This document shows, piece by piece, positions 1 through 8,671 of a stretch of 40,704 bases of DNA. Position 1 is the stretch's first letter. The number at the start of each line of letters is the position of its first letter. Source of the DNA: Mollicutes bacterium (GTDB lineage: Bacteria > Bacillota_I > Bacilli_A > RF39 > UBA660). Made by a program: the position numbers and the translations under genes. A model generated the notes under the pieces. It was not told the origin of the DNA, did not search any database, and saw only the letters and a program-made list of their open reading frames with translations. Location: contig JAAYPA010000011.1 in the NCBI GenBank assembly GCA_012520055.1, forward strand, positions 1 through 40,704, read 5' to 3'.

Positions 1-458
1 ATGTTGCTTATGGTGATAGCGATAACAAAGATAATCGTGATAAATTAAAAAGAGCTATAGAAATAGCTCAAGCTAAAGATTTTGTGGAAAATATGGATGA
101 TAAATATGATTCCCATATTGCTAGAGGAGGAACTAATGTATCCGGAGGCCAAAAACAAAGATTATCGATAGCTAGAGCTATAATGCGTGAACCCGAAATA
201 TATTTATTTGATGATACTTTTTCTGCACTTGATTATAAAACTGACTTAAAACTTAGACAAGAACTTAAAAATCAAACTAAAAATGCAACATGTATCATTG
301 TTTCACAAAGAATCGGAACAATTCTTCATGCTGATCAAATTTTAGTACTGGAAAAAGGAAAATGTGTTGGTCTTGGTACTCATGAAGAATTATTAAAAAA
401 ATGCAAAGTATATCGGGAAATTGCTTTATCGCAATTAAATGAAAAGGAGTTGCAATAA
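1..458 (+). CDS. ABC exporter permease/ATPase subunit, C-terminal end (gene starts left of the window)
   Basis: Frame 3 is open from base 3 (VAYGDSDNKDNRDKLKRAIEIAQAKDFVENMDD...), so the listed GTG at 84 is internal. ABC signature VSGGQKQR, Walker B IYLFDD, H-loop VSQR. Confidence 0.9.
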   Translation, partial: VAYGDSDNKDNRDKLKRAIEIAQAKDFVENMDDKYDSHIARGGTNVSGGQKQRLSIARAIMREPEIYLFDDTFSALDYKTDLKLRQELKNQTKNATCIIVSQRIGTILHADQILVLEKGKCVGLGTHEELLKKCKVYREIALSQLNEKELQ

Positions 459-2251
459 TGAGAAATAAACAAGGACCTGGCATGAACATTGGCGATAAAC
501 CTCAAAATTTTTCAAAAGCAATTAAAGAACTTATCATTTATGGAAATAAATATTGGTTTGCCGTAATATCTTGTACGATATTAGCAACTATCGGGTCTAT
601 TATTGCTATAATCGGTCCTAATAAAATTAGAGATCTTACTGATATAATTACCGAAGGTCTTATGTCCACTATTGATTTTATTCAAGTTAAAAATATTTCT
701 TTTCTTCTATTAATACTGTATTTAATAAGTACGGTTATTAACTTAATTGAAGGCTTAATGATGGCAGGGGTATCTAATAAATTTTCGAAAAATTTAAGAG
801 ATGATATTTCCCAAAAAGTTAACCGTTTACCTCTTAAATATTTTGATAATCATCAATATGGTGATATTTTATCTAGAGTTACTAATGATGTCGATACAAT
901 TAATGGGGCTCTTCAAAACAGTATTGTATCTTTAATAAGTGCTGTAGCCTTATTAATAGGATCATTAATTATGATGTTTTATACCAACTGGATTATGGCT
1001 CTTACGACGATATTTTCAACTTTAATAGGTTTTTTCCTAATGGTAGTTGTCTTAAGTAAATCTCAAAAATATTTTAATGAAAAACAAGAAGCTATGGGGG
1101 ATTTAAACGGTCATATTGAAGAAATTTATTCCAATCATAATATCGTTAAAGTATATAATGGTGAAAAAGACGCTGATATGAAATTTGATATGTTTAATGA
1201 AAGAGAATATAAAGCTAATTTAAAAAGTCAGTTTTTATCAGGAATTATGCAACCAATTATGATGTTTTCAGGTGATTTTAGTTATGTAGCTATTTGTATA
1301 GTTGGCGCAATCTTAACTAGTCACGAAGTCATTACTTTTGGAGTAATTATTGCTTTTATAATTTACATTAGAATATTTACTGGGCCTTTACGTCAGATAG
1401 CTATGGGGCTTACCCAATTACAAGGAGCAGCGGCAGCCAGTGAAAGAGTTTTTGGATTTTTAAATGAAGAAGAAATGCAAGAAGAAAAGAAAACTAAAGA
1501 ACTTAAAATAGAAGATGTTAAAGGTAATATTGAATTTAAGAATGTTAATTTTGGTTATAATTCAAATAAGTTAATTATTAAAGACTTCAGTGCTAAAGTA
1601 AAAGCTGGGCAAAAAGTTGCTATTGTCGGACCAACCGGCGCAGGGAAAACAACTTTAGTAAATTTACTGATGAAGTTTTATGATATTAGCGATGGTGAAA
1701 TTTTAATTGATGACGTTACTATTAAAGATTTAACCAGAGAAAATGTTCGAAAATTATTTATTATGGTTTTACAAGATACTTGGTTATTTGAAGGAACTAT
1801 TAGAGATAATATAGCTTATAATCATCCTAATATCAGTGATAATACTATTAAAGAGGTATGTACTAAAATTGGACTTGATCATTTTATTAAAACGATTAAT
1901 AATGGTTTAGATTATCATATTATTGATTCTGAAAGTATTTCGGCCGGTCAAAGACAATTAATAACCATAGCCCGTGGTATGATTAGTAATGCTCCATTTT
2001 TAATCTTAGATGAAGCTACCAGTAATGTTGATACCAGAACTGAAGAATTAGTCCAAAAAGCGATGGATAAACTTATGAAAGGAAGAACATCCTTTATCAT
2101 AGCCCACCGCTTATCAACTATTAAAAATGCTGATTTAATCCTTGTTATGAATGAAGGAAATATCGTTGAAAAAGGAACCCATAAAGATCTACTAAAACTT
2201 AACGGATTTTATGCTGAACTATATAATTCTCAGTTTACAAAATTAGATTAA
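458..2251 (+). CDS. ABC exporter fused permease/ATPase subunit (partner of a heterodimeric MDR-type exporter)
   Basis: 597 aa. Hydrophobic N-terminal half, Walker A GPTGAGKTT, signature ISAGQRQL, Walker B FLILDEATS, H-loop IIAHRL. The start overlaps the upstream stop (TAATG), implying translational coupling. Confidence 0.9.
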   Translation: MRNKQGPGMNIGDKPQNFSKAIKELIIYGNKYWFAVISCTILATIGSIIAIIGPNKIRDLTDIITEGLMSTIDFIQVKNISFLLLILYLISTVINLIEGLMMAGVSNKFSKNLRDDISQKVNRLPLKYFDNHQYGDILSRVTNDVDTINGALQNSIVSLISAVALLIGSLIMMFYTNWIMALTTIFSTLIGFFLMVVVLSKSQKYFNEKQEAMGDLNGHIEEIYSNHNIVKVYNGEKDADMKFDMFNEREYKANLKSQFLSGIMQPIMMFSGDFSYVAICIVGAILTSHEVITFGVIIAFIIYIRIFTGPLRQIAMGLTQLQGAAAASERVFGFLNEEEMQEEKKTKELKIEDVKGNIEFKNVNFGYNSNKLIIKDFSAKVKAGQKVAIVGPTGAGKTTLVNLLMKFYDISDGEILIDDVTIKDLTRENVRKLFIMVLQDTWLFEGTIRDNIAYNHPNISDNTIKEVCTKIGLDHFIKTINNGLDYHIIDSESISAGQRQLITIARGMISNAPFLILDEATSNVDTRTEELVQKAMDKLMKGRTSFIIAHRLSTIKNADLILVMNEGNIVEKGTHKDLLKLNGFYAELYNSQFTKLD

Positions 2252-2283
2252 AATATCTTACCAAATGTAAGATATTTTTTTTT
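2252..2283 (+). terminator. Intrinsic terminator of the ABC exporter operon
   Basis: AATATCTTAC (2252-2261) / GTAAGATATT (2267-2276), 5-nt loop, followed by a T-run to 2283. Confidence 0.7.
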
Positions 2284-2295
2284 GACAAAAAATGT
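2276..2295 (+). repeat. Left copy of a perfect 20-bp direct repeat, TTTTTTTTGACAAAAAATGT
   Basis: Identical 20-mer at 3581-3600, read directly from the sequence. Confidence 0.9.
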
Positions 2296-2312
2296 TTTTT
2301 AAATGATATAAT
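2282..2312 (+). promoter_or_regulatory. Putative promoter of the 2332 gene
   Basis: TTGACA (2282-2287), 19-nt spacer, extended -10 TGaTATAAT (2304-2312). The spacer is long, so support is moderate. Confidence 0.4.
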
Positions 2313-2331
2313 AATTACTAAGGAGATTGTA

Positions 2332-3552
2332 ATGAAAAAAATACAATTAATTACATATGAGGTTGAAGAGTATCTAGATTATTCTGAAGAAATAGAAGTT
2401 AGTAATTTTAATAATTTAAAGTCTTTAGATTTATTTGATATTAATATATTTGATTTGAACGATAATCGAATCTGGCAGAATAATATCAGTTTTACTCCTG
2501 ACATAAATATTATTTTATATAAAGATTTTAAAAGTATAAACAAGATGCTCAAAAGCAGTACTAAAGCTAAGATTCTATTTTTTCTTCCTCAAAATATTAA
2601 TTATTGCTTAATACGTACTCATGACTACTATCAATTAAAAGATATTGAAGATACGGTTTCAAAAATATTAAATTTTATTATACCTATTCAGTTCGATATT
2701 GAATATGATAATAATCTTACTAAAATTAGTAATGAGTTAATATCTTCATCTTTTTATATAATAAATAACAATTATGAAATAATTACAAAAGCTGAAAGTA
2801 GTGAAAAAATAACCACTATAAAAAAAGATAATATCATTGTTTCTACACTAAAAATAATAGATAAAAATAATAATAATATATTAAATCATTATTTAAATGA
2901 AATAGGTTTAATATCATATGAGCCAACATATCCTGAATGGTTATATAGTTTTAATTTTTTTGATGATCAAACACAAAGAAATAACATAACACAAGCGAAA
3001 AAACAAATTTTGATTCAAGAGAAAATAATTGAAGAAGCGTATTATAAATTAAATCAAAATTTAAAATACAAAAGTATATTATGCTCTACATCAAAGGAGC
3101 TCATAACAGTTGTATTTGAAATATTAGAATTTATTTTTGATATTTCCTTATCTGATTCTAAAGATGAATTAAATGAAGATTTTTTAATAAAAAAAGACAA
3201 TATTACTTATATAGGAGAAATAAAAGGTGTTAACAGTAATGTAAAAAATGAACACATAGGTCAAGTAGATAACCATTATTTGAAATACTTAGATAAATTG
3301 GAATCAACAGACGAAGTTGAAAACTTAAAAAAAATCTTAATAATAAATTTTGAAAGAGAAAGAGATGTGTTGAATCGAAATGAGGTACATCAAAAGCAAA
3401 TTGAGATGGCCAACAAAAGACAGGTTTTGATTATAGATACAGTGAGCTTACTAAAGATTTATGAAAAATTATTAAATGAGGATTTATCAAAAGATAAAGT
3501 AATAGAGTATATTAATAATAATGTCGGGTTAGTGGAAATAAATAAGATTTGA
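2332..3552 (+). CDS. Orphan 406-aa protein with a C-terminal PD-(D/E)xK nuclease-like motif
   Basis: AAGGAG lies 6 nt upstream of the ATG, and the gene has its own terminator. I recognise no family for residues 1-250, and residues about 215-250 look coiled-coil. Residues 283-298 read D-FLIKKDNITYIG-E-I-K (D-x12-E-x-K), followed by Q311...Y316. Confidence 0.6.
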   Translation: MKKIQLITYEVEEYLDYSEEIEVSNFNNLKSLDLFDINIFDLNDNRIWQNNISFTPDINIILYKDFKSINKMLKSSTKAKILFFLPQNINYCLIRTHDYYQLKDIEDTVSKILNFIIPIQFDIEYDNNLTKISNELISSSFYIINNNYEIITKAESSEKITTIKKDNIIVSTLKIIDKNNNNILNHYLNEIGLISYEPTYPEWLYSFNFFDDQTQRNNITQAKKQILIQEKIIEEAYYKLNQNLKYKSILCSTSKELITVVFEILEFIFDISLSDSKDELNEDFLIKKDNITYIGEIKGVNSNVKNEHIGQVDNHYLKYLDKLESTDEVENLKKILIINFERERDVLNRNEVHQKQIEMANKRQVLIIDTVSLLKIYEKLLNEDLSKDKVIEYINNNVGLVEINKI

Positions 3553-3558
3553 GTAAAA

Positions 3559-3588
3559 AATAATAGGAAATGTTCTATTATTTTTTTT
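3559..3588 (+). terminator. Intrinsic terminator of the 2332 gene
   Basis: AATAATAG (3559-3566) / CTATTATT (3575-3582), 8-nt loop, T-run to 3588. Confidence 0.6.
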
Positions 3589-3600
3589 GACAAAAAATGT
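3581..3600 (+). repeat. Right copy of the perfect 20-bp direct repeat, TTTTTTTTGACAAAAAATGT
   Basis: Identical to 2276-2295; the copies are 1305 bp apart. Confidence 0.9.
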
Positions 3601-3640
3601 GTAAAGTCATAAAAAAATACAAGAAAATTTTTAAAACATA

Positions 3641-3669
3641 TTGATTATTTTAGTTATCTAATGTAATAT
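3641..3669 (+). promoter_or_regulatory. Putative mraZ (dcw) promoter
   Basis: TTGATT (3641-3646), 17-nt spacer, TAATAT (3664-3669) preceded by TG. Confidence 0.5.
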
Positions 3670-3670
3670 A

Positions 3671-3705
3671 GTGGTAGACAGTGACATGATGTGGAAGAAA
3701 GTGGG
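3671..3705 (+). promoter_or_regulatory. MraZ operator: four direct GTG(G/A) repeats with 10-bp phasing
   Basis: GTGGTAGACA GTGACATGAT GTGGAAGAAA GTGGGGGATT starts directly after the -10 and runs into the mraZ RBS. The last unit reads AAAGTGG. Confidence 0.6.
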
Positions 3706-3713
3706 GGATTTCG

Positions 3714-4157
3714 ATGTTAATGGGAGAATATCACCATAACATTGATGATAAGGGGCGCCTTATCATTCCTAGTAAGTTTAGATACGAACTAGGCGAAAAA
3801 TTTATAGTCACCCGTGGTTTAGATAAATGTTTATTCGTTTATTCTAATACCGAGTGGGACAAAATAGTTAGTAAACTAAAAAGCTTACCGTTTACGAATA
3901 AAGACGCTCGAAACTTTACCCGTTTCTTCTTATCAGGTGCTGCTGAATGTGAATTCGACCGACAAGGTAGAATTAACATTACCTCCCCATTGGTTAGTTA
4001 CGCCGATTTAACGAAAGAATGCGTTATAATCGGCGCAAATGACCGCCTTGAAATATGGTCAAAAGAATCATGGGATGAATTTTTATCAAAAAATGAAGAC
4101 AGCTTAGCAGACATAGCCGAAAATCTATTTGCATCAGGTCCGTATGAAACATTATAG
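3714..4157 (+). CDS. mraZ: Transcriptional regulator MraZ
   Basis: 147 aa. [23 protein letters not shown] plus a second SpoVT/AbrB-like repeat ([12 protein letters not shown]). First gene of the dcw cluster. Confidence 0.95.
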
Positions 4158-5067
4158 TGTTTTAAAAAATGAAGTAATTGAAGGATTAAATATTAATCCT
4201 GAAGGTATATATATTGATGCAACACTCGGTTATGGAGGTCATTCTGAAGAAATTTTGAAGCGATTAAGAAGGGGTTTCCTATTCGCCTTTGACCAAGATG
4301 AAGATGCCATTCATTTTGGTCAACAAAGACTATCTAAAGTTAGTAATAACTTTAAAATAATATATGATAATTTTGAAAACCTAAAGGAATGCCTAAATAA
4401 AGAAGGTATTACCAAAGTAGATGGTATCGTCTTTGATTTAGGATTGTCCAGTCCACAAATTGATGAAACAGATAGAGGATTTACCTTTATGAAGGACGCA
4501 CCTTTAGATATGAGAATGGATAAACAAAAAAAGCTAACAGCAGAGATAGTAATAAATAATTATAGTTTAGAGGATTTAATTAATATATTCTTCACTTACG
4601 GTGAAGAAAAATTTTCTAAAACTATAGCTAAAAATATAATAGAATATCGTAAAAAACAAAAAATAACTCATACTAAAGAATTAGTAGAAATTATTAAATC
4701 TTCGGTACCAATTAAATACTTCCTTAATAATCATCCGGAAAGACAAATATTTCAAGCTATCAGAATCGAAGTAAATAATGAACTCAAAGTTTTGGAAAAA
4801 GCCTTAGAAGAAGCGATAATGCTTCTAAATCCTCAAGGAAGGATATGTGTTATTTCCTTTCATTCCTTAGAAGATCGAATTGTTAAGCAAATATTTAAAA
4901 AATATAGTGAAATAAATAAATTAGTTAAAGGTTTACCGGTAATACCGGATGAATATAAGCCATTAATTAGATTAGTGATAAATAAACCGATTGTGGCAAC
5001 TGAGAAAGAACTTGCCGAAAACAGCCGAAGTAAAAGTGCTAAATTAAGAATCATAGAGAGGTTATAG
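4144..5067 (+). CDS. rsmH: 16S rRNA (cytosine1402-N4)-methyltransferase RsmH
   Basis: [10 protein letters not shown] and [10 protein letters not shown] motifs. I chose the ATG at 4144 (MKHYSVL...) over the TTG at 4129 given in the ORF track. Overlaps the mraZ stop by 14 nt. Confidence 0.92.
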
Positions 5068-5069
5068 AC

Positions 5070-5357
5070 ATGGTAAAGACTAAAAAATTAAAACTAAATA
5101 AAATTGATAAAGTAATGATAACTATTTTGTTATTATTAGTTTTAATCAGTCCTTTAGTTGTAGTCTTTTCCAAGAGTATCCTTTCCAGAAGTAATATAGA
5201 AGTAGAAAAAATCAAAGCTAAAGTTGAAAAACAAGATACTATCAACGAAAGCTTAACTATGAAGATAAATGAACTGGCAAGTCTTTCCAATATCCAAGAC
5301 ATTGCAAAAGAGTATGGACTTTCTTATATTAATGATAATATAATAGTAATTAAATAG
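5070..5357 (+). CDS. ftsL: Cell division protein FtsL-like
   Basis: 95 aa. Basic N-terminus, one TM (ITILLLLVLISPLVVVF) and a coiled-coil ectodomain, in the conserved slot between rsmH and the class B PBP. Confidence 0.7.
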   Translation: MVKTKKLKLNKIDKVMITILLLLVLISPLVVVFSKSILSRSNIEVEKIKAKVEKQDTINESLTMKINELASLSNIQDIAKEYGLSYINDNIIVIK

Positions 5358-5368
5358 TTGGTGATAAT

Positions 5369-7516
5369 ATGAAACAAAAGAACAATTGCGTTAAATTAAA
5401 CGAGTATTTTTTAATCGTAATTGTTCTTTTATTTGTCCTAATTGCGATTAAAATAGTGTATGTAGCGGTAAGTCCTACCGTAGATGGAATTGATTTAAAA
5501 GCTTTGGCGTTATCAAATCGTACTGCCGAAAAAATTATCAGATCAAAAAGAGGATCTATTTATGATGCCAATAATGAAGTTTTAGCTCAAGATGTTAAAT
5601 CTTATACAGTTATAGCTTATTTAGAAGAATCAAGAACTACTGATCCTGATAATCCCAATCATGTAATTGAGAAAGAAAGAACTTCTCAAGAATTAAGTCC
5701 TTTACTTAATATGAGTGCTGAATATATTTTAAGTCTTTTAAAGAAGGAAAACTTATATCAAGTGGAATTAGGTCCGGGAGGAAGAGGGATTACCGAGTTA
5801 AAAAAACAAGCTATTGAAGCTTTAGACTTACCGGGTATTGATTTTATTGAAGATTCTAAAAGAGATTATCCCAATGGTGATTTTGCTTCCTATATTATCG
5901 GTTATGCTAGGAGAAATGATCAAGGTCAAATAGCTGGAGAAATGGGCATTGAAGCAAAATTCGATGAAAAATTAAAGGGACAAAATGGTAAAATAATTTA
6001 CGAAAAGGACGCTTACGGCTATAAAATGGCCGGAAAACCGGAAATGGTAACTCCGGCAGTCAACGGTTATGATATTTATTTAACTCTGGATTCTAATATT
6101 CAAATGTACTTAGAAAATTTTATAATGGAATTAGAAGGATATAATATCGATTGGGCCACAATTACTATAGCTGATGCTAAAACCGGTGCTATAGTCGGAT
6201 CAGCCTCAACTCCAAGTTTTAATCCTAATATTCTCGAAATTAAAAATTATAATAACCCTTTAACTTCATATATCTATGAACCAGGTTCAACCATGAAAAT
6301 ATTTTCCTTTATGGCAGCTATTGAAAATGGCCTCTATAACGGTGAAGAAACTTATCCATCAGGTAATATTATCGTTGATAATTTTAAAATAAGTGACTGG
6401 AATACCCATGGTTGGGGAACAATTACTTTTGATACCGGTTTTACTTATTCATCTAATACTGCCGCGGTAAGATTAGCCCAAAGATTAGGTAAAGATAAAT
6501 TAACAGACTTTTATGAAAAACTAGGATTTGCTCAAAAAACTGGTATTGAACTTCCTAATGAGTATAATGGGGAAGTTGGAATGGTTTATGAATCGGAACT
6601 GGCCAGTGCTTCTTACGGTCAAGGTATTACTGCTACACCAATTCAAAATATTCAAGCATTAACTTCTTTAACCAATAATGGTATTACTATGAAACCATAT
6701 ATTATCGCTAAAATAGTTGATCCTGATACCGGAGAAGTAATTTATGAAGGTAAAAAGACCGAAGTAAATAAAGTAGCCAGTGAAGATACCATTAAAAAAA
6801 TATTAGATTTAATGGATTTAACGGTTAATACCAAAGATCCGGTAGCTACTGGTAAATCATATCATACTGATGTTTTAACTTTAGTAGGTAAAACCGGTAC
6901 CGCTCAATATACGATGGCCAATGGTAAATATACTTCCGGATCATATAAAAATATTAGATCATTTTCCGGAGTATTTCCAAAAGACAATCCAGAATATATT
7001 ATTTATTTATCTGTAAAAGATTTTGGTGGTACAGCTACTAATTTAGGTAATTTAACTAAGTCAGTTGTAGAATCCATTGCTAAATATAAGAATATTGAAG
7101 ATCGTGAATCTGATACTGATCAAACAAAAATTATTACCATAAATAACTATATTAATCGTTCTAAAAACAGTGTCATAAGTGAATTAGAATCCCAAGGTTT
7201 AATTCCGATTGTTGTTGGTAACGGAGAAACAATCATTCGTCAATCTTTGAGTAAAAATACCAAAGTAATTATTGGCACTAAAGTATTTTTAATGACTAAT
7301 GCTGCAGAATATATTATGCCGAAGGCAATTGGTTGGAATAGTAGTGAAATAATTAGCTTGGCAAATTTACTAAAAATAAAATATAATATAAGTGGTTATG
7401 GCAAGGTAAGTAATCTTTCCATTGCCCCGGGTAGTATAATTGATTTAAATAGTGTATTAGAAATTACTTTAGATAATAGGAGTGTAGTAAATGAAAAAGA
7501 AAATAAAACAAACTAA
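5369..7516 (+). CDS. Class B penicillin-binding protein (PBP2B/FtsI/SpoVD type) with C-terminal PASTA repeats
   Basis: 715 aa. N-terminal TM, SxxK (STMK), SxN (SSN) and KTG (KTGT) motifs, and two PASTA-like repeats at the C-terminus. Confidence 0.92.
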   Translation: MKQKNNCVKLNEYFLIVIVLLFVLIAIKIVYVAVSPTVDGIDLKALALSNRTAEKIIRSKRGSIYDANNEVLAQDVKSYTVIAYLEESRTTDPDNPNHVIEKERTSQELSPLLNMSAEYILSLLKKENLYQVELGPGGRGITELKKQAIEALDLPGIDFIEDSKRDYPNGDFASYIIGYARRNDQGQIAGEMGIEAKFDEKLKGQNGKIIYEKDAYGYKMAGKPEMVTPAVNGYDIYLTLDSNIQMYLENFIMELEGYNIDWATITIADAKTGAIVGSASTPSFNPNILEIKNYNNPLTSYIYEPGSTMKIFSFMAAIENGLYNGEETYPSGNIIVDNFKISDWNTHGWGTITFDTGFTYSSNTAAVRLAQRLGKDKLTDFYEKLGFAQKTGIELPNEYNGEVGMVYESELASASYGQGITATPIQNIQALTSLTNNGITMKPYIIAKIVDPDTGEVIYEGKKTEVNKVASEDTIKKILDLMDLTVNTKDPVATGKSYHTDVLTLVGKTGTAQYTMANGKYTSGSYKNIRSFSGVFPKDNPEYIIYLSVKDFGGTATNLGNLTKSVVESIAKYKNIEDRESDTDQTKIITINNYINRSKNSVISELESQGLIPIVVGNGETIIRQSLSKNTKVIIGTKVFLMTNAAEYIMPKAIGWNSSEIISLANLLKIKYNISGYGKVSNLSIAPGSIIDLNSVLEITLDNRSVVNEKENKTN

Positions 7517-8018
7517 ATCATTTTTAAATTCACCTCATGTAGTCTTGATACCTTTAATTATCATCAACTTTATGTTGCTCTATTTAGGTTATCACCTAAT
7601 GAAAACAGATGATACATATATGTTTAGTGGCACCGGAGATTATGTTAATATTTTAAATGGGGTAGTTAGTTTAAATTATGATATTAATTTATTTGAAGGC
7701 TCAAGTATAGAATATACGAAAGAAAAAGATGTATTAGTAACTGAATATAAGGCGGGTTATTATATAGTAATAGATGATACTCTTGTGCCTTTTCTTACTA
7801 AAACAAATAAAAATTCCCAAGGAGAATCATTAAAACAAATTTTAGAAGAAGAAAAAGCCTTTACTTTAACTGAACCATATACACGTAAGGAATTCTTTAC
7901 CAAAGATGTAAAAAAAGCTTTTGACAATGGATTATTCTTCATAGTAGAAGCAAAAACTAAAAATAATGAAGAAATCTTAGATAAAATAGAAATAAGTATT
8001 TCCAAGATATCGAAATGA
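7491..8018 (+). CDS. Hypothetical membrane-anchored protein
   Basis: 175 aa. AGGAG lies 8 nt upstream, there is one N-terminal TM, and the ORF overlaps the PBP stop by 26 nt. No family recognised. Confidence 0.6.
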   Translation: MKKKIKQTKSFLNSPHVVLIPLIIINFMLLYLGYHLMKTDDTYMFSGTGDYVNILNGVVSLNYDINLFEGSSIEYTKEKDVLVTEYKAGYYIVIDDTLVPFLTKTNKNSQGESLKQILEEEKAFTLTEPYTRKEFFTKDVKKAFDNGLFFIVEAKTKNNEEILDKIEISISKISK

Positions 8019-8029
8019 TATCTTTTTTT
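8004..8029 (+). terminator. Intrinsic terminator ending the dcw transcription unit
   Basis: AAGATATC (8004-8011) / GATATCTT (8017-8024) followed by a T-run. The stop codon lies in the loop. Confidence 0.65.
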
Positions 8030-8120
8030 ATGCAATTAGATAATCTAATTACGCAGATTATCAAACCTTTAATAGTATAAAGTGTAAGATATATATTTAT
8101 CTTATTTTAGCGGAGAATAG

Positions 8121-8432
8121 GTGATAAATATAAATAATGAATTTGAGATAGTTGAAAGACTTACAGCTGTAGAAGAAAGAGAAAAGATAAATAGTCACAG
8201 ATTAAATACTCATGAAAAAGAAATAAAAGATATTAGTGGTATCCTTATATCCATTAAAGAAATAACTTTAGAAATTAAATATATGCGTAAAGATATGTTT
8301 GATGTAGTGGAAAGACTAAAAGAACTGGAAAGTATACCAAAAAACCGCTGGAATGAATTAATTAAGACCATTATTACCATCATAGTGACAGCTTTAAGTA
8401 CTTTTATTTTAGTTAAATTAGGAATCAAATAG
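8121..8432 (+). CDS. XhlA-like lysis-associated membrane protein
   Basis: 103 aa with a GTG start 5 nt after GGAG. N-terminal coiled coil (VERLTAVEEREKINSHRLNTHEKEIKDI) and one C-terminal TM. Sits directly upstream of a holin. Confidence 0.55.
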   Translation: MININNEFEIVERLTAVEEREKINSHRLNTHEKEIKDISGILISIKEITLEIKYMRKDMFDVVERLKELESIPKNRWNELIKTIITIIVTALSTFILVKLGIK

Positions 8433-8437
8433 AAAGG

Positions 8438-8671
8438 GTGATTAATATCAGCAATAAAACTTATGATGTTTTAAAATTTATAGCGCAAATAGTCTTGCCC
8501 GCTTTAGCATCATTATACTTTGCATTATCTTCAATTTGGAAACTACCATATTCTGAAGAAATTGTCGGAACAATCAGTGTGATTATTACTTTTCTTGGAA
8601 CTATTTTAAAAGTATCAAGTGATACTTATTATGCATATCTTAAGAAAGAAAAGGAAGTTACTTATGAATAA
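8438..8671 (+). CDS. Phage holin (Dp-1/phage_holin_1-like)
   Basis: 77 aa. NKTYDVLKFIAQIVLPALASLYFAL...WKLPYSEEIVGT resembles the Dp-1-type holin N-terminus. Two TM segments. Confidence 0.6.
   Translation: MINISNKTYDVLKFIAQIVLPALASLYFALSSIWKLPYSEEIVGTISVIITFLGTILKVSSDTYYAYLKKEKEVTYE

Follow-up and report, generated by a model that had tools for sequence, protein, structure and literature searches.

A horizontally acquired single-gene cassette between an exporter gene and mraZ of an uncultured Mollicutes bacterium encodes a predicted PD-(D/E)xK protein with a possible role in defence

In the genome of an uncultured gut/biogas Mollicutes bacterium a segment of 1,305 bp, harbouring one gene, separates an ATP-binding cassette (ABC) exporter gene from mraZ. 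The segment is located in a 40.7-kb stretch (contig JAAYPA010000011.1, positions 1 to 40,704 of the forward strand) that was analyzed as a whole and is called the window below. The segment is almost certainly an insertion between these two genes. The insertion polymorphism itself is directly observed, and the inserted DNA is foreign and horizontally acquired. Its single open reading frame (ORF) encodes a protein of 406 amino acids in which, according to structure prediction, an N-terminal domain resembling class I glutamine amidotransferases (GATase1) is connected by a long helix to a C-terminal domain that very likely has the PD-(D/E)xK nuclease fold. The reading that we favour, with modest confidence for the statement as a whole including the defence role, is that of a horizontally acquired stand-alone sensor-nuclease directed against phages or other mobile DNA.

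An insertion polymorphism upstream of mraZ

Contigs encoding an identical MraZ were examined for the empty or filled state of the locus. Contig L013 (1,868 bp), which stems from another sample, is empty. Its positions 1-625 align to positions 1670-2295 of the window and its positions 604-1868 to positions 3579-4843. The alignments overlap in one copy of the 20-mer TTTTTTTTGACAAAAAATGT, which in the window brackets the gene as a direct repeat, and 1,305 bp are missing. In L013 the exporter stop codon is followed by a hairpin, one 20-mer and the native mraZ upstream region. An earlier reading of the window from its letters only (the sequence-only reading) had pointed out the 20-mer on both sides of the gene and had anticipated an empty site with one copy between the exporter terminator and mraZ; the repeat is exact at both sites and L013 represents such an empty site. 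The insert has a GC content of 20-23% versus 27-35% in its flanks.

The comparison was extended to 80 representatives of species whose MraZ is related; they are without exception metagenome-assembled genomes (MAGs) of uncultured Bacilli, 'Mollicutes' or 'Tenericutes'. A search of the ~4 kb 5' of mraZ (less where the locus was shorter) revealed a homologue of the ORF in none of these 80, showing that the gene is not a core gene of this locus. The distance between exporter gene and mraZ is only ~130-170 bp in six related species (L015, L016, L017, L022, L024 and L041). The opposite polarity was considered as well, in which the gene is ancestral and L013 arose by precise deletion between the 20-bp repeats. 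L013 exactly matches the product expected of such a deletion, and repeats of such length in direct orientation can undergo deletion without RecA. However, the six species-level relatives in which exporter and mraZ are adjacent are empty, the gene is absent from the site in all 80 representatives, and the GC content of the insert lies 7-12 points under that of the flanks. Moreover, a deletion presupposes a second copy of the repeat, which itself needs an insertion. An ancestral gene at this site is therefore regarded as very improbable. L013 could still be a product of secondary precise excision, in which case the main conclusion would stay the same.

L013 shares 98.7% identity with the window on the mraZ side and 88.8% on the exporter side, while L015, from a neighbouring species, shows ~87% identity on both sides. 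Because the identity of L013 differs between left and right, a homologous-recombination breakpoint is placed at the insertion site. This suggests, as far as can be read from the flanking sequences, that the cassette, or the empty allele, was exchanged between lineages through recombination of the flanks.

The filled allele is present in at least two other assemblies. A biogas-fermenter sample covers it from both sides, with one contig identical to window positions 1-2856 (100% identity) and another spanning positions 3151-8228. The mraZ-side contigs of two other assemblies begin at position 3151 or 3165 and run to 8225-8228. The three contigs that begin at 3151-3165 had raised the suspicion of strain hypervariability within the ORF, which was rejected on the basis of the same-sample contig that covers positions 1-2856 at 100% identity. 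The left contig break (window 2857-3150) falls in the most AT-rich stretch, of ~20% GC, and is probably an artefact of assembly. The common right break near position 8225 may mark a strain-variable region.

The spacer between exporter gene and mraZ is variable across the clade (L018 2530-3846, L025 3156-3872, L030 1426-3872, L033 922-3868, L034 764-3872, L027 1168-3722). In one species it contains a gene for a secreted-looking protein of 438 amino acids, in another uppS-cdsA-rseP, and in several species one to four tandem genes for paralogous proteins of ~230 amino acids with a central hydrophobic segment. A duplicated junction like that of the window was found in none of these variable spacers.

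Junctions and expression unit

The window contains two exact copies of TTTTTTTTGACAAAAAATGT and no third copy even at up to three mismatches (shuffled sequences average 0.23 matches). A repeat tool extends the repeat in register to a degenerate form of 57 nt (2239-2295 versus 3544-3600, 77% identity), part of which likeness may stem merely from the A-tract, stem and T-tract build common to terminators. As the sequence-only reading had noted, both copies lie on the T-tail of a hairpin. The two A/U-rich hairpins each have arms of 12 bp with 100% complementarity, and the T-run of each opens one copy of the repeat. Both have a folding energy of -9.8 kcal/mol, with z-scores of -5.0 for the left and -3.5 for the right hairpin, and the left one has a homologous hairpin in the empty allele L013. 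A consensus terminator scan, which demands three G-C pairs, lists neither hairpin; a role as terminators is plausible in a genome of such AT-richness.

The cassette would form a self-contained expression unit (Table 1). The TTGACA of the left repeat copy stands 19 nt 5' of the cassette's own extended -10 element and would serve as its -35 element, followed by ribosome-binding site (RBS), ORF and a hairpin with T-run. The consensus promoter scan, with spacers limited to 16-18 nt, does not report this putative promoter. All elements of the promoter-RBS-ORF-terminator unit described earlier were found again, with AAGGAG one base to the left of where that description would suggest it, and the insert contains no other ORF. 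Pfam annotations precomputed for identical contigs agree with the earlier description of the flanks as housekeeping DNA: an exporter gene pair (ABC_membrane/ABC_tran) lies to the left, and the genes to the right encode MraZ, RsmH, a DivIC-family protein and a penicillin-binding protein (PBP). As is evident from the sequence itself, the duplication keeps both the exporter hairpin with its T-run and the whole native mraZ upstream region intact.

Fold and conserved residues of the encoded protein

A full-length AlphaFold2 (AF2) model was built from an alignment of 28 sequences, secondary structure was assigned with DSSP and folds were searched with Foldseek. The model has a predicted local distance difference test score (pLDDT) of 89 and a predicted template modelling score (pTM) of 0.53; the domains are thus modelled confidently, while their mutual orientation is not.

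When residues 245-406 were modelled alone, pLDDT rose to 92.8 and pTM to 0.89. In the numbering of this domain model the order of elements is alpha-beta-beta-alpha-beta-alpha-beta (H10-25, E39-44, E47-55, H62-82, E87-95, H110-118, E121-125), as is expected for the predicted restriction-endonuclease-like core, an alpha/beta fold around a central mixed sheet (alpha-beta-beta-beta-alpha-beta). The top PDB matches of the C-terminal domain are all PD-(D/E)xK enzymes, namely FokI, the nickase Nt.BspD6I, the cA3-activated nuclease Cdn1, bunyavirus cap-snatching endonucleases, EcoO109I and LmuA, in agreement with the nuclease fold proposed earlier from the motif. FokI was matched with a query-normalised TM score of 0.57-0.60 and a probability of 0.96, and Nt.BspD6I likewise with a probability of 0.96. 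A fold search of BFVD gave weak matches only, to restriction-enzyme, Mrr and GATase1 folds. The D-x12-E-x-K motif is present where the sequence-only reading had placed it, and its residues lie on strands 283-288 and 291-300 of the AF2 model. D283, E296, K298, G299, Q311 and R349 are invariant in 89 sequences sharing 31-54% identity with the window protein, and N339, R342 and Q356 are nearly invariant. The first three residues are also invariant in the set of 28 sequences. Y316, which had been counted to the motif as well, is not conserved; H315 and Y319 are conserved instead. By predicted fold and motif the window protein belongs to the PD-(D/E)xK superfamily.

For residues 1-250 no family had been recognised. 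This stands as far as sequence families are concerned, but residues 1-205 do show a GATase1-like fold in the model. The best PDB matches are Pdx2, HisH, the GATase domain of PhzE, the GATase-like domain of GH42 beta-galactosidases and TM1158 (E 4e-5 to 1e-3, up to 5e-3 with TM1158 included, probability ~1.0, target-normalised TM ~0.4-0.5, root-mean-square deviation (rmsd) 6-8 A). The modelled three-layer alpha/beta/alpha domain resembles class I glutamine amidotransferases at the fold level only. Across the 89 members, residues 1-205 contain no invariant or near-invariant Cys or His, and the catalytic Cys-His-Glu triad is absent. Conserved residues of this domain are Q5, D33, N38, W48, D65, P86, K103, E126 and T130, and among its conserved polar residues are Q5, D33, N38, D65, Q87/N88, K103, E126/N127 and T130. 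A conserved LPQN (residues 85-88) follows strand 80-84, which would be the place of the GATase1 nucleophile elbow. On these grounds the domain has the appearance of a pseudo-enzyme whose pocket has been kept in remodelled form. The helix connecting the two domains may be a coiled-coil or dimerisation element.

Table 1 Features of the inserted segment and its junctions (positions in the window)
Feature	Position	Strand	Basis and remarks
Left A/U-rich hairpin, 3' of ABC-exporter stop codon	2250..2278	+	Arms 2250-2261/2267-2278; likely intrinsic terminator
Left copy of direct repeat TTTTTTTTGACAAAAAATGT	2276..2295	+	Exact match; single-copy counterpart in L013 at 606-625
Putative promoter of inserted gene	2282..2312	+	TTGACA 2282-2287 in left repeat, 19-nt spacer, extended -10 TGATATAAT 2304-2312; sequence reading
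Inserted segment, 1,305 bp (unique insert plus second repeat copy; one of several equivalent registers)	2296..3600	+	Missing in L013
RBS AAGGAG, 6 nt 5' of ATG	2320..2325	+	Sequence reading
406-aa ORF, member of a large uncharacterised family	2332..3552	+	ORF list, profile searches
N-terminal domain, ~residues 1-205, class-I glutamine-amidotransferase-like alpha/beta fold (predicted)	2332..2946	+	AF2 model, Foldseek
Long linker helix, residues 212-250 (predicted)	2965..3081	+	DSSP on AF2 model
C-terminal PD-(D/E)xK nuclease-fold domain, residues 251-406 (predicted)	3082..3549	+	Domain model, Foldseek
Motif D283-x12-E296-x-K298 on beta-hairpin	3178..3225	+	Invariance; Q311 at 3262-3264
Right A/U-rich hairpin, 3' of ORF stop codon	3555..3586	+	Arms 3555-3566/3575-3586; likely terminator of inserted gene
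Right copy of direct repeat TTTTTTTTGACAAAAAATGT	3581..3600	+	Exact match; restores native mraZ upstream sequence; match to empty allele from 3581 on

A large unnamed protein family

The window protein had been described as an orphan, which does not hold. A word-indexed search yielded 499 homologues, the best with 54% identity, and a hidden Markov model (HMM) search of 1.84 billion cluster representatives yielded 1,263 clusters at 50% identity with E <= 1e-3, 432 of them with E <= 1e-30. The number of 1,263 clusters is a lower bound for the size of the family, which is unnamed. Its members are nearly all full-length (~400-425 amino acids), and each named member that was looked up is a 'hypothetical protein' from MAGs of Bacilli or Ruminococcus. 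The window protein has no match in Pfam, NCBIfam, PADLOC or PHROGs (PADLOC v2.0.0: no family at E up to 10), and PDB searches by sequence and by profile gave no match either. Pfam and PADLOC searches with 89 diverse members revealed nothing consistent, PADLOC giving just scattered single-member chance matches.

Genomic contexts of the homologues

Nine distinct chromosomal contexts and 19 IMG/VR viral contigs were read. In two of the chromosomal contexts (P0002, P0017) a large serine recombinase is present and a Fic gene matching PADLOC SoFic/PDC-S04 abuts or overlaps the start of the homologue; a third (P0024) combines a large serine recombinase with PDC-S13 and AAA_13. In P0083 the order is PDDEXK_4, RNase III, SIR2, homologue, DRT UG5-nitrilase and RNase_T, and in P0085 integrase, MazG-like, homologue, AbiO/Nhi-like helicase and Type IV restriction enzyme. 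P0072 and P0070 are islets after recG with a tyrosine integrase or TnpV and with NikA-like, NUDIX and ScoMcrA-like genes. IetA/IetS precede the homologue in P0031, and SNF2, DUF4391, a methyltransferase and a Type III restriction enzyme do so in P0055. An AriA-like ATPase is also found among the neighbours. The viral contigs encode full-length or nearly full-length relatives with 33-39% identity, in most cases flanked by a phrog_36 transcriptional regulator and by terminase and portal genes, the usual position being directly 5' of the terminase genes.

No neighbour is conserved across the contexts examined. Candidate partner genes were rejected in two instances: the downstream genes of two homologues, encoding 885 and 864 amino acids, are unrelated, one of the two being a DRT UG5-nitrilase system by itself, and overlapping downstream genes for proteins of 252 and 205 amino acids are mutually unrelated as well. 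A protein of 864 amino acids without Pfam or PADLOC match is encoded 3' of the homologue in L009 (7304-9898) and L243 (8303-10897). The islet, inserted behind recG-DUF975, also carries NikA-like genes and either TnpV or an integrase, and the gene for the 864-residue protein is possibly a defence gene in its own right. In the closest relatives (50-54% identity) a SoFic/PDC-S04 Fic gene is located directly upstream (L001 5075-6001, L241 6061-6987). In L001 it overlaps the start codon of the homologue, in L241 a gap of 13 bp separates the two, and both islets carry a large serine recombinase. The window cassette has no upstream Fic gene.

Occurrence in defence islands, in recombinase-borne islets and at an accessory position of prophages, without a constant partner gene, is a pattern typically shown by stand-alone defence genes, and is also compatible with a selfish nuclease. 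The earlier suggestion of a stand-alone anti-phage or selfish nuclease gene is thereby supported. In its selfish form the protein would be a free-standing homing-type endonuclease that cuts the empty intergenic allele of related genomes or phages, whereupon its gene is copied in during repair and so spreads, giving no benefit to the host. Such an origin would account for a lone nuclease-fold gene with its own signals in a spacer between conserved genes, for the presence/absence polymorphism at the locus and for the abrupt change of flank divergence at precisely this site, which resembles a co-conversion tract. In addition, the phage copies are usually found beside terminase genes, with HNH endonucleases among the neighbours, and the vicinity of the terminase is a classic place for free-standing endonuclease genes. 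However, the chromosomal homologues occupy many unrelated neighbourhoods instead of one cognate target, these neighbourhoods are rich in defence genes, the N-terminal domain is acidic with an enzyme-like fold and is not a known long-target DNA-binding module, and a 20-bp target duplication is no product of homing. A homing endonuclease is considered unlikely.

The gene might also have a function on the phage side, as a late-gene or packaging nuclease, in anti-defence or in degradation of host DNA, the window copy then being a stranded prophage fragment with no current role. Most of the 19 viral relatives indeed take a comparable position immediately ahead of terS, terL and portal, and a few kb downstream in the window small ORFs look like a phage lysis remnant. 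This explanation is hard to reconcile with an insert that holds this gene alone, with clean junctions identical to the empty site, with an intact ORF preceded by strong expression signals, and with the many homologues in non-phage defence islands and recombinase-borne islets; most phages of the same module order would, moreover, be expected to lack the gene. We give it a slightly lower probability than homing.

Comparison with known systems

The Type IIS enzymes FokI and Nt.BspD6I, like the window protein, have a C-terminal nuclease domain after a helical linker with Asp...(Asp/Glu)-x-Lys on consecutive strands. The N-terminal part of the window protein, however, is not a FokI-type DNA-recognition domain. 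The cognate methyltransferase of FokI-type restriction-modification systems is absent from the insert and not consistently adjacent in the nine chromosomal or the phage contexts. It may nevertheless be asked whether the protein is an orphan conventional restriction enzyme or toxin, whose methyltransferase or antitoxin gene lies at another place of the genome. In its fold it is similar to restriction nucleases of Type IIS and Type II, and one homologue adjoins a Type III methyltransferase and restriction-enzyme pair. That pair is a complete system alone, however, neither a methyltransferase gene nor a small antitoxin-like gene regularly adjoins the homologues in the nine chromosomal and 19 viral contexts, and the window insert carries a single gene, so that an orphan of this kind is thought improbable. 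Type IV restriction enzymes differ in their reader domains: Pfam and PADLOC detected no SRA, YTH/EVE, DUF262 or winged-helix Mrr-N domain in the window protein, whose N-terminal domain is predicted to have the GATase1 fold. It could conceivably be a new kind of modified-base reader.

The ligand-gated effectors Card1/Can2 and Cdn1, of CRISPR type III and related signalling systems, combine an N-terminal alpha/beta sensor with a C-terminal PD-(D/E)xK nuclease in one polypeptide of ~370-400 amino acids, as is seen here. The nuclease domain of Cdn1 matches the C-terminal domain of the window protein with a probability of 0.90 and 20% identity over 102 columns, while full-length alignment with Cdn1/Card1 is weak (query-normalised TM 0.14-0.20, rmsd 28). 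These enzymes differ from the window protein in having a CARF or SAVED domain instead of a GATase1-like domain, and no cyclic-oligonucleotide synthase (Cas10, CD-NTase) or CRISPR genes are linked to the family in the contexts examined. In Shedu (SduA, DUF4263) and similar systems, a single protein located in defence islands combines a C-terminal PD-(D/E)xK nuclease with an N-terminal regulatory region that varies. This architecture is alike, but neither the window protein nor the 89 members match the PADLOC or Pfam models covering Shedu.

END nucleases are single-gene defence systems that join a Type IIS-like nuclease to a repair-enzyme domain devoid of catalytic activity (PMC12191111). They lack a methyltransferase, the pseudo-enzyme domain has been proposed to act as sensor, and they are found in defence islands with no co-associated gene while being missed by PADLOC and DefenseFinder (PMC12191111). 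In END the nuclease is N-terminal and of the PLD superfamily (HxK), and the inactive EndoIII sensor is C-terminal (PMC12191111). The window protein has the concept in common with END, but combines a PD-(D/E)xK domain at the C-terminus with a GATase1-like domain and is not homologous. Type IIS enzymes, Card1/Can2/Cdn1, Shedu and, in concept, END are the nearest parallels, and the window protein belongs to none of these as a family. No description of a GATase-like plus PD-(D/E)xK defence protein was found in the literature.

With regard to mobility, the cassette can be compared with CIME-type elements and Xer-dependent IMEX/pdif modules, which likewise consist of short, recombinase-less cargo in an intergenic position between identical direct repeats, with an empty allele containing one copy. 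The 20-mer, however, has no recognisable likeness to dif sites, occurs elsewhere, in every stretch examined, as one copy in an unrelated context and does not flank other members of the family. Like tyrosine-recombinase elements, which lie between identical direct repeats (attL/attR core), the insert has a perfect 20-bp direct repeat with one copy in the empty allele, but it lacks an integrase gene: its one ORF has no recombinase similarity. It differs from insertion sequences and transposons by the absence of a transposase and of terminal inverted repeats and by a duplication of 20 bp. Unlike an integron cassette, which is a promoterless ORF with an attC site next to intI/attI, the unit has its own extended -10 element and RBS, its neighbours are housekeeping genes only, and the 20-mer is not reused as a site. 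Mobilisation of the cassette in trans is conceivable.

Proposed function

In the proposed mechanism the N-terminal pseudo-enzyme domain would sense or target and thereby license the C-terminal domain, which would cleave DNA in a Mg2+-dependent manner. Nuclease domains of the PD-(D/E)xK fold often work in pairs, and because they often need such pairing the long helix probably mediates dimerisation. The outcome would be immunity against phages or other invading DNA. A more far-reaching proposal, which we put forward as tentative and rather doubtful, is that the family constitutes a so far undescribed class of single-protein immune nucleases in which a GATase-like pseudo-enzyme infection sensor gates a FokI/Cdn1-like nuclease, encoded on a self-contained cassette that travels between phages, integrative islets and chromosomes and plugs into terminator/promoter junctions via a junction duplication of ~20 bp, leaving neighbouring operons untouched. 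The sensor would be triggered by a phage protein, a metabolite or a signal derived from a nucleotide, bound in the remodelled active-site pocket.

Several observations weigh against the interpretation as a horizontally acquired defence nuclease. The assignment to defence is one of guilt by association, and PADLOC has no model for the family. The terminase-adjacent position in phages may instead mean a phage or selfish function. The Foldseek E values of the C-terminal domain are only ~0.03, with none <= 1e-3. Membership of the FokI family by sequence was rejected: hhalign of the family C-domain profile versus the FokI cleavage domain, with a FokI query sequence verified against 1fok and 2fok, gave a probability of 0.3%, and there is no Pfam match. 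The three parts of the protein are all acidic (median pI 5.3 for the N-terminal domain, 5.2 for the helix and 4.9 for the C-terminal domain), which is usually atypical of a DNA-recognition domain. Finally, the ORF list, Pfam and a repeat scan revealed neither a gene for a recombinase or transposase nor terminal inverted repeats in the insert.

If the family is indeed one of defence nucleases, a widespread single-gene system is added to the catalogue of bacterial immunity, with an undescribed pairing of sensor-like and effector domains. It is encoded by phage contigs as well as by MAGs of uncultured Bacilli that come from gut and biogas samples. For this uncultured lineage, the filled window and the empty L013 provide a natural pair of knock-in and knock-out, and a cassette of 1.3 kb with its own signals is amenable to direct synthesis and test. 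Provided that the gene is a true defence gene, the locus illustrates at base-pair resolution how such a gene can fit between a terminator and the promoter of a cell-division operon and disturb neither.

Origin of the 20-bp duplication

The 20-mer was found in 112 contigs of the JGI metagenome collection, with one copy in an unrelated context in each stretch examined, and once each in seven viral contigs. No copy lies near a family member among the stretches examined. It is not a common terminator-promoter junction sequence, a possibility that had been left open by the sequence-only reading. A function as mobile-element end or att site was rejected in view of these single copies in unrelated contexts, the absence of flanking repeats of such kind at other family members and the lack of terminal inverted repeats in the insert. 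Target duplications made by transposases typically measure 2-14 bp, which is exceeded by the 20-bp duplication. Its length fits integration of a circular intermediate via 20 bp of identity, or a microhomology-mediated event, and permits precise loss. Our leading guess is that the cassette would have entered by Campbell-type or microhomology-mediated integration at a 20-bp identity and would then have spread by homologous recombination of the flanks. The duplicated target consists of the terminator T-tail plus TTGACAAAAAATGT.

The insertion target in relatives is a palindrome, TTGACA-N6-TGTCAA, directly 3' of the exporter terminator (window 3587-3615; L017 2435-2452, L019 1643-1660, L024 1351-1368), and the cassette sits inside this palindrome, after TTGACAAAAAATGT. 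A TTGACA followed after ~17 nt by TAAAAA is conserved 5' of the main mraZ promoter. From their sequence, TTGACA/TAAAAA or the palindrome might act as an additional promoter or be bound by a dimeric regulator as its operator.

Other features around the locus

Four GTGGN boxes (GTGGT, GTGAC, GTGGA, GTGGG) with an exact spacing of 10 nt are present at window positions 3671-3705, between the putative mraZ promoter (TTGATT...TGTAATAT, ~3642-3670) and the mraZ start. They are found near base-for-base in all related species, and we take their layout to be that of MraZ operator repeats. At window positions 8120-8670, beside the common contig break at ~8225, the genes of the dcw cluster are followed by small ORFs. 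One of these encodes a protein that begins with a coiled coil and ends in a transmembrane helix (...RWNELIKTIITIIVTALSTFILVKLGIK) and is followed by a gene for a small multi-transmembrane protein. The small ORFs resemble a lysis remnant of the XhlA/holin type.

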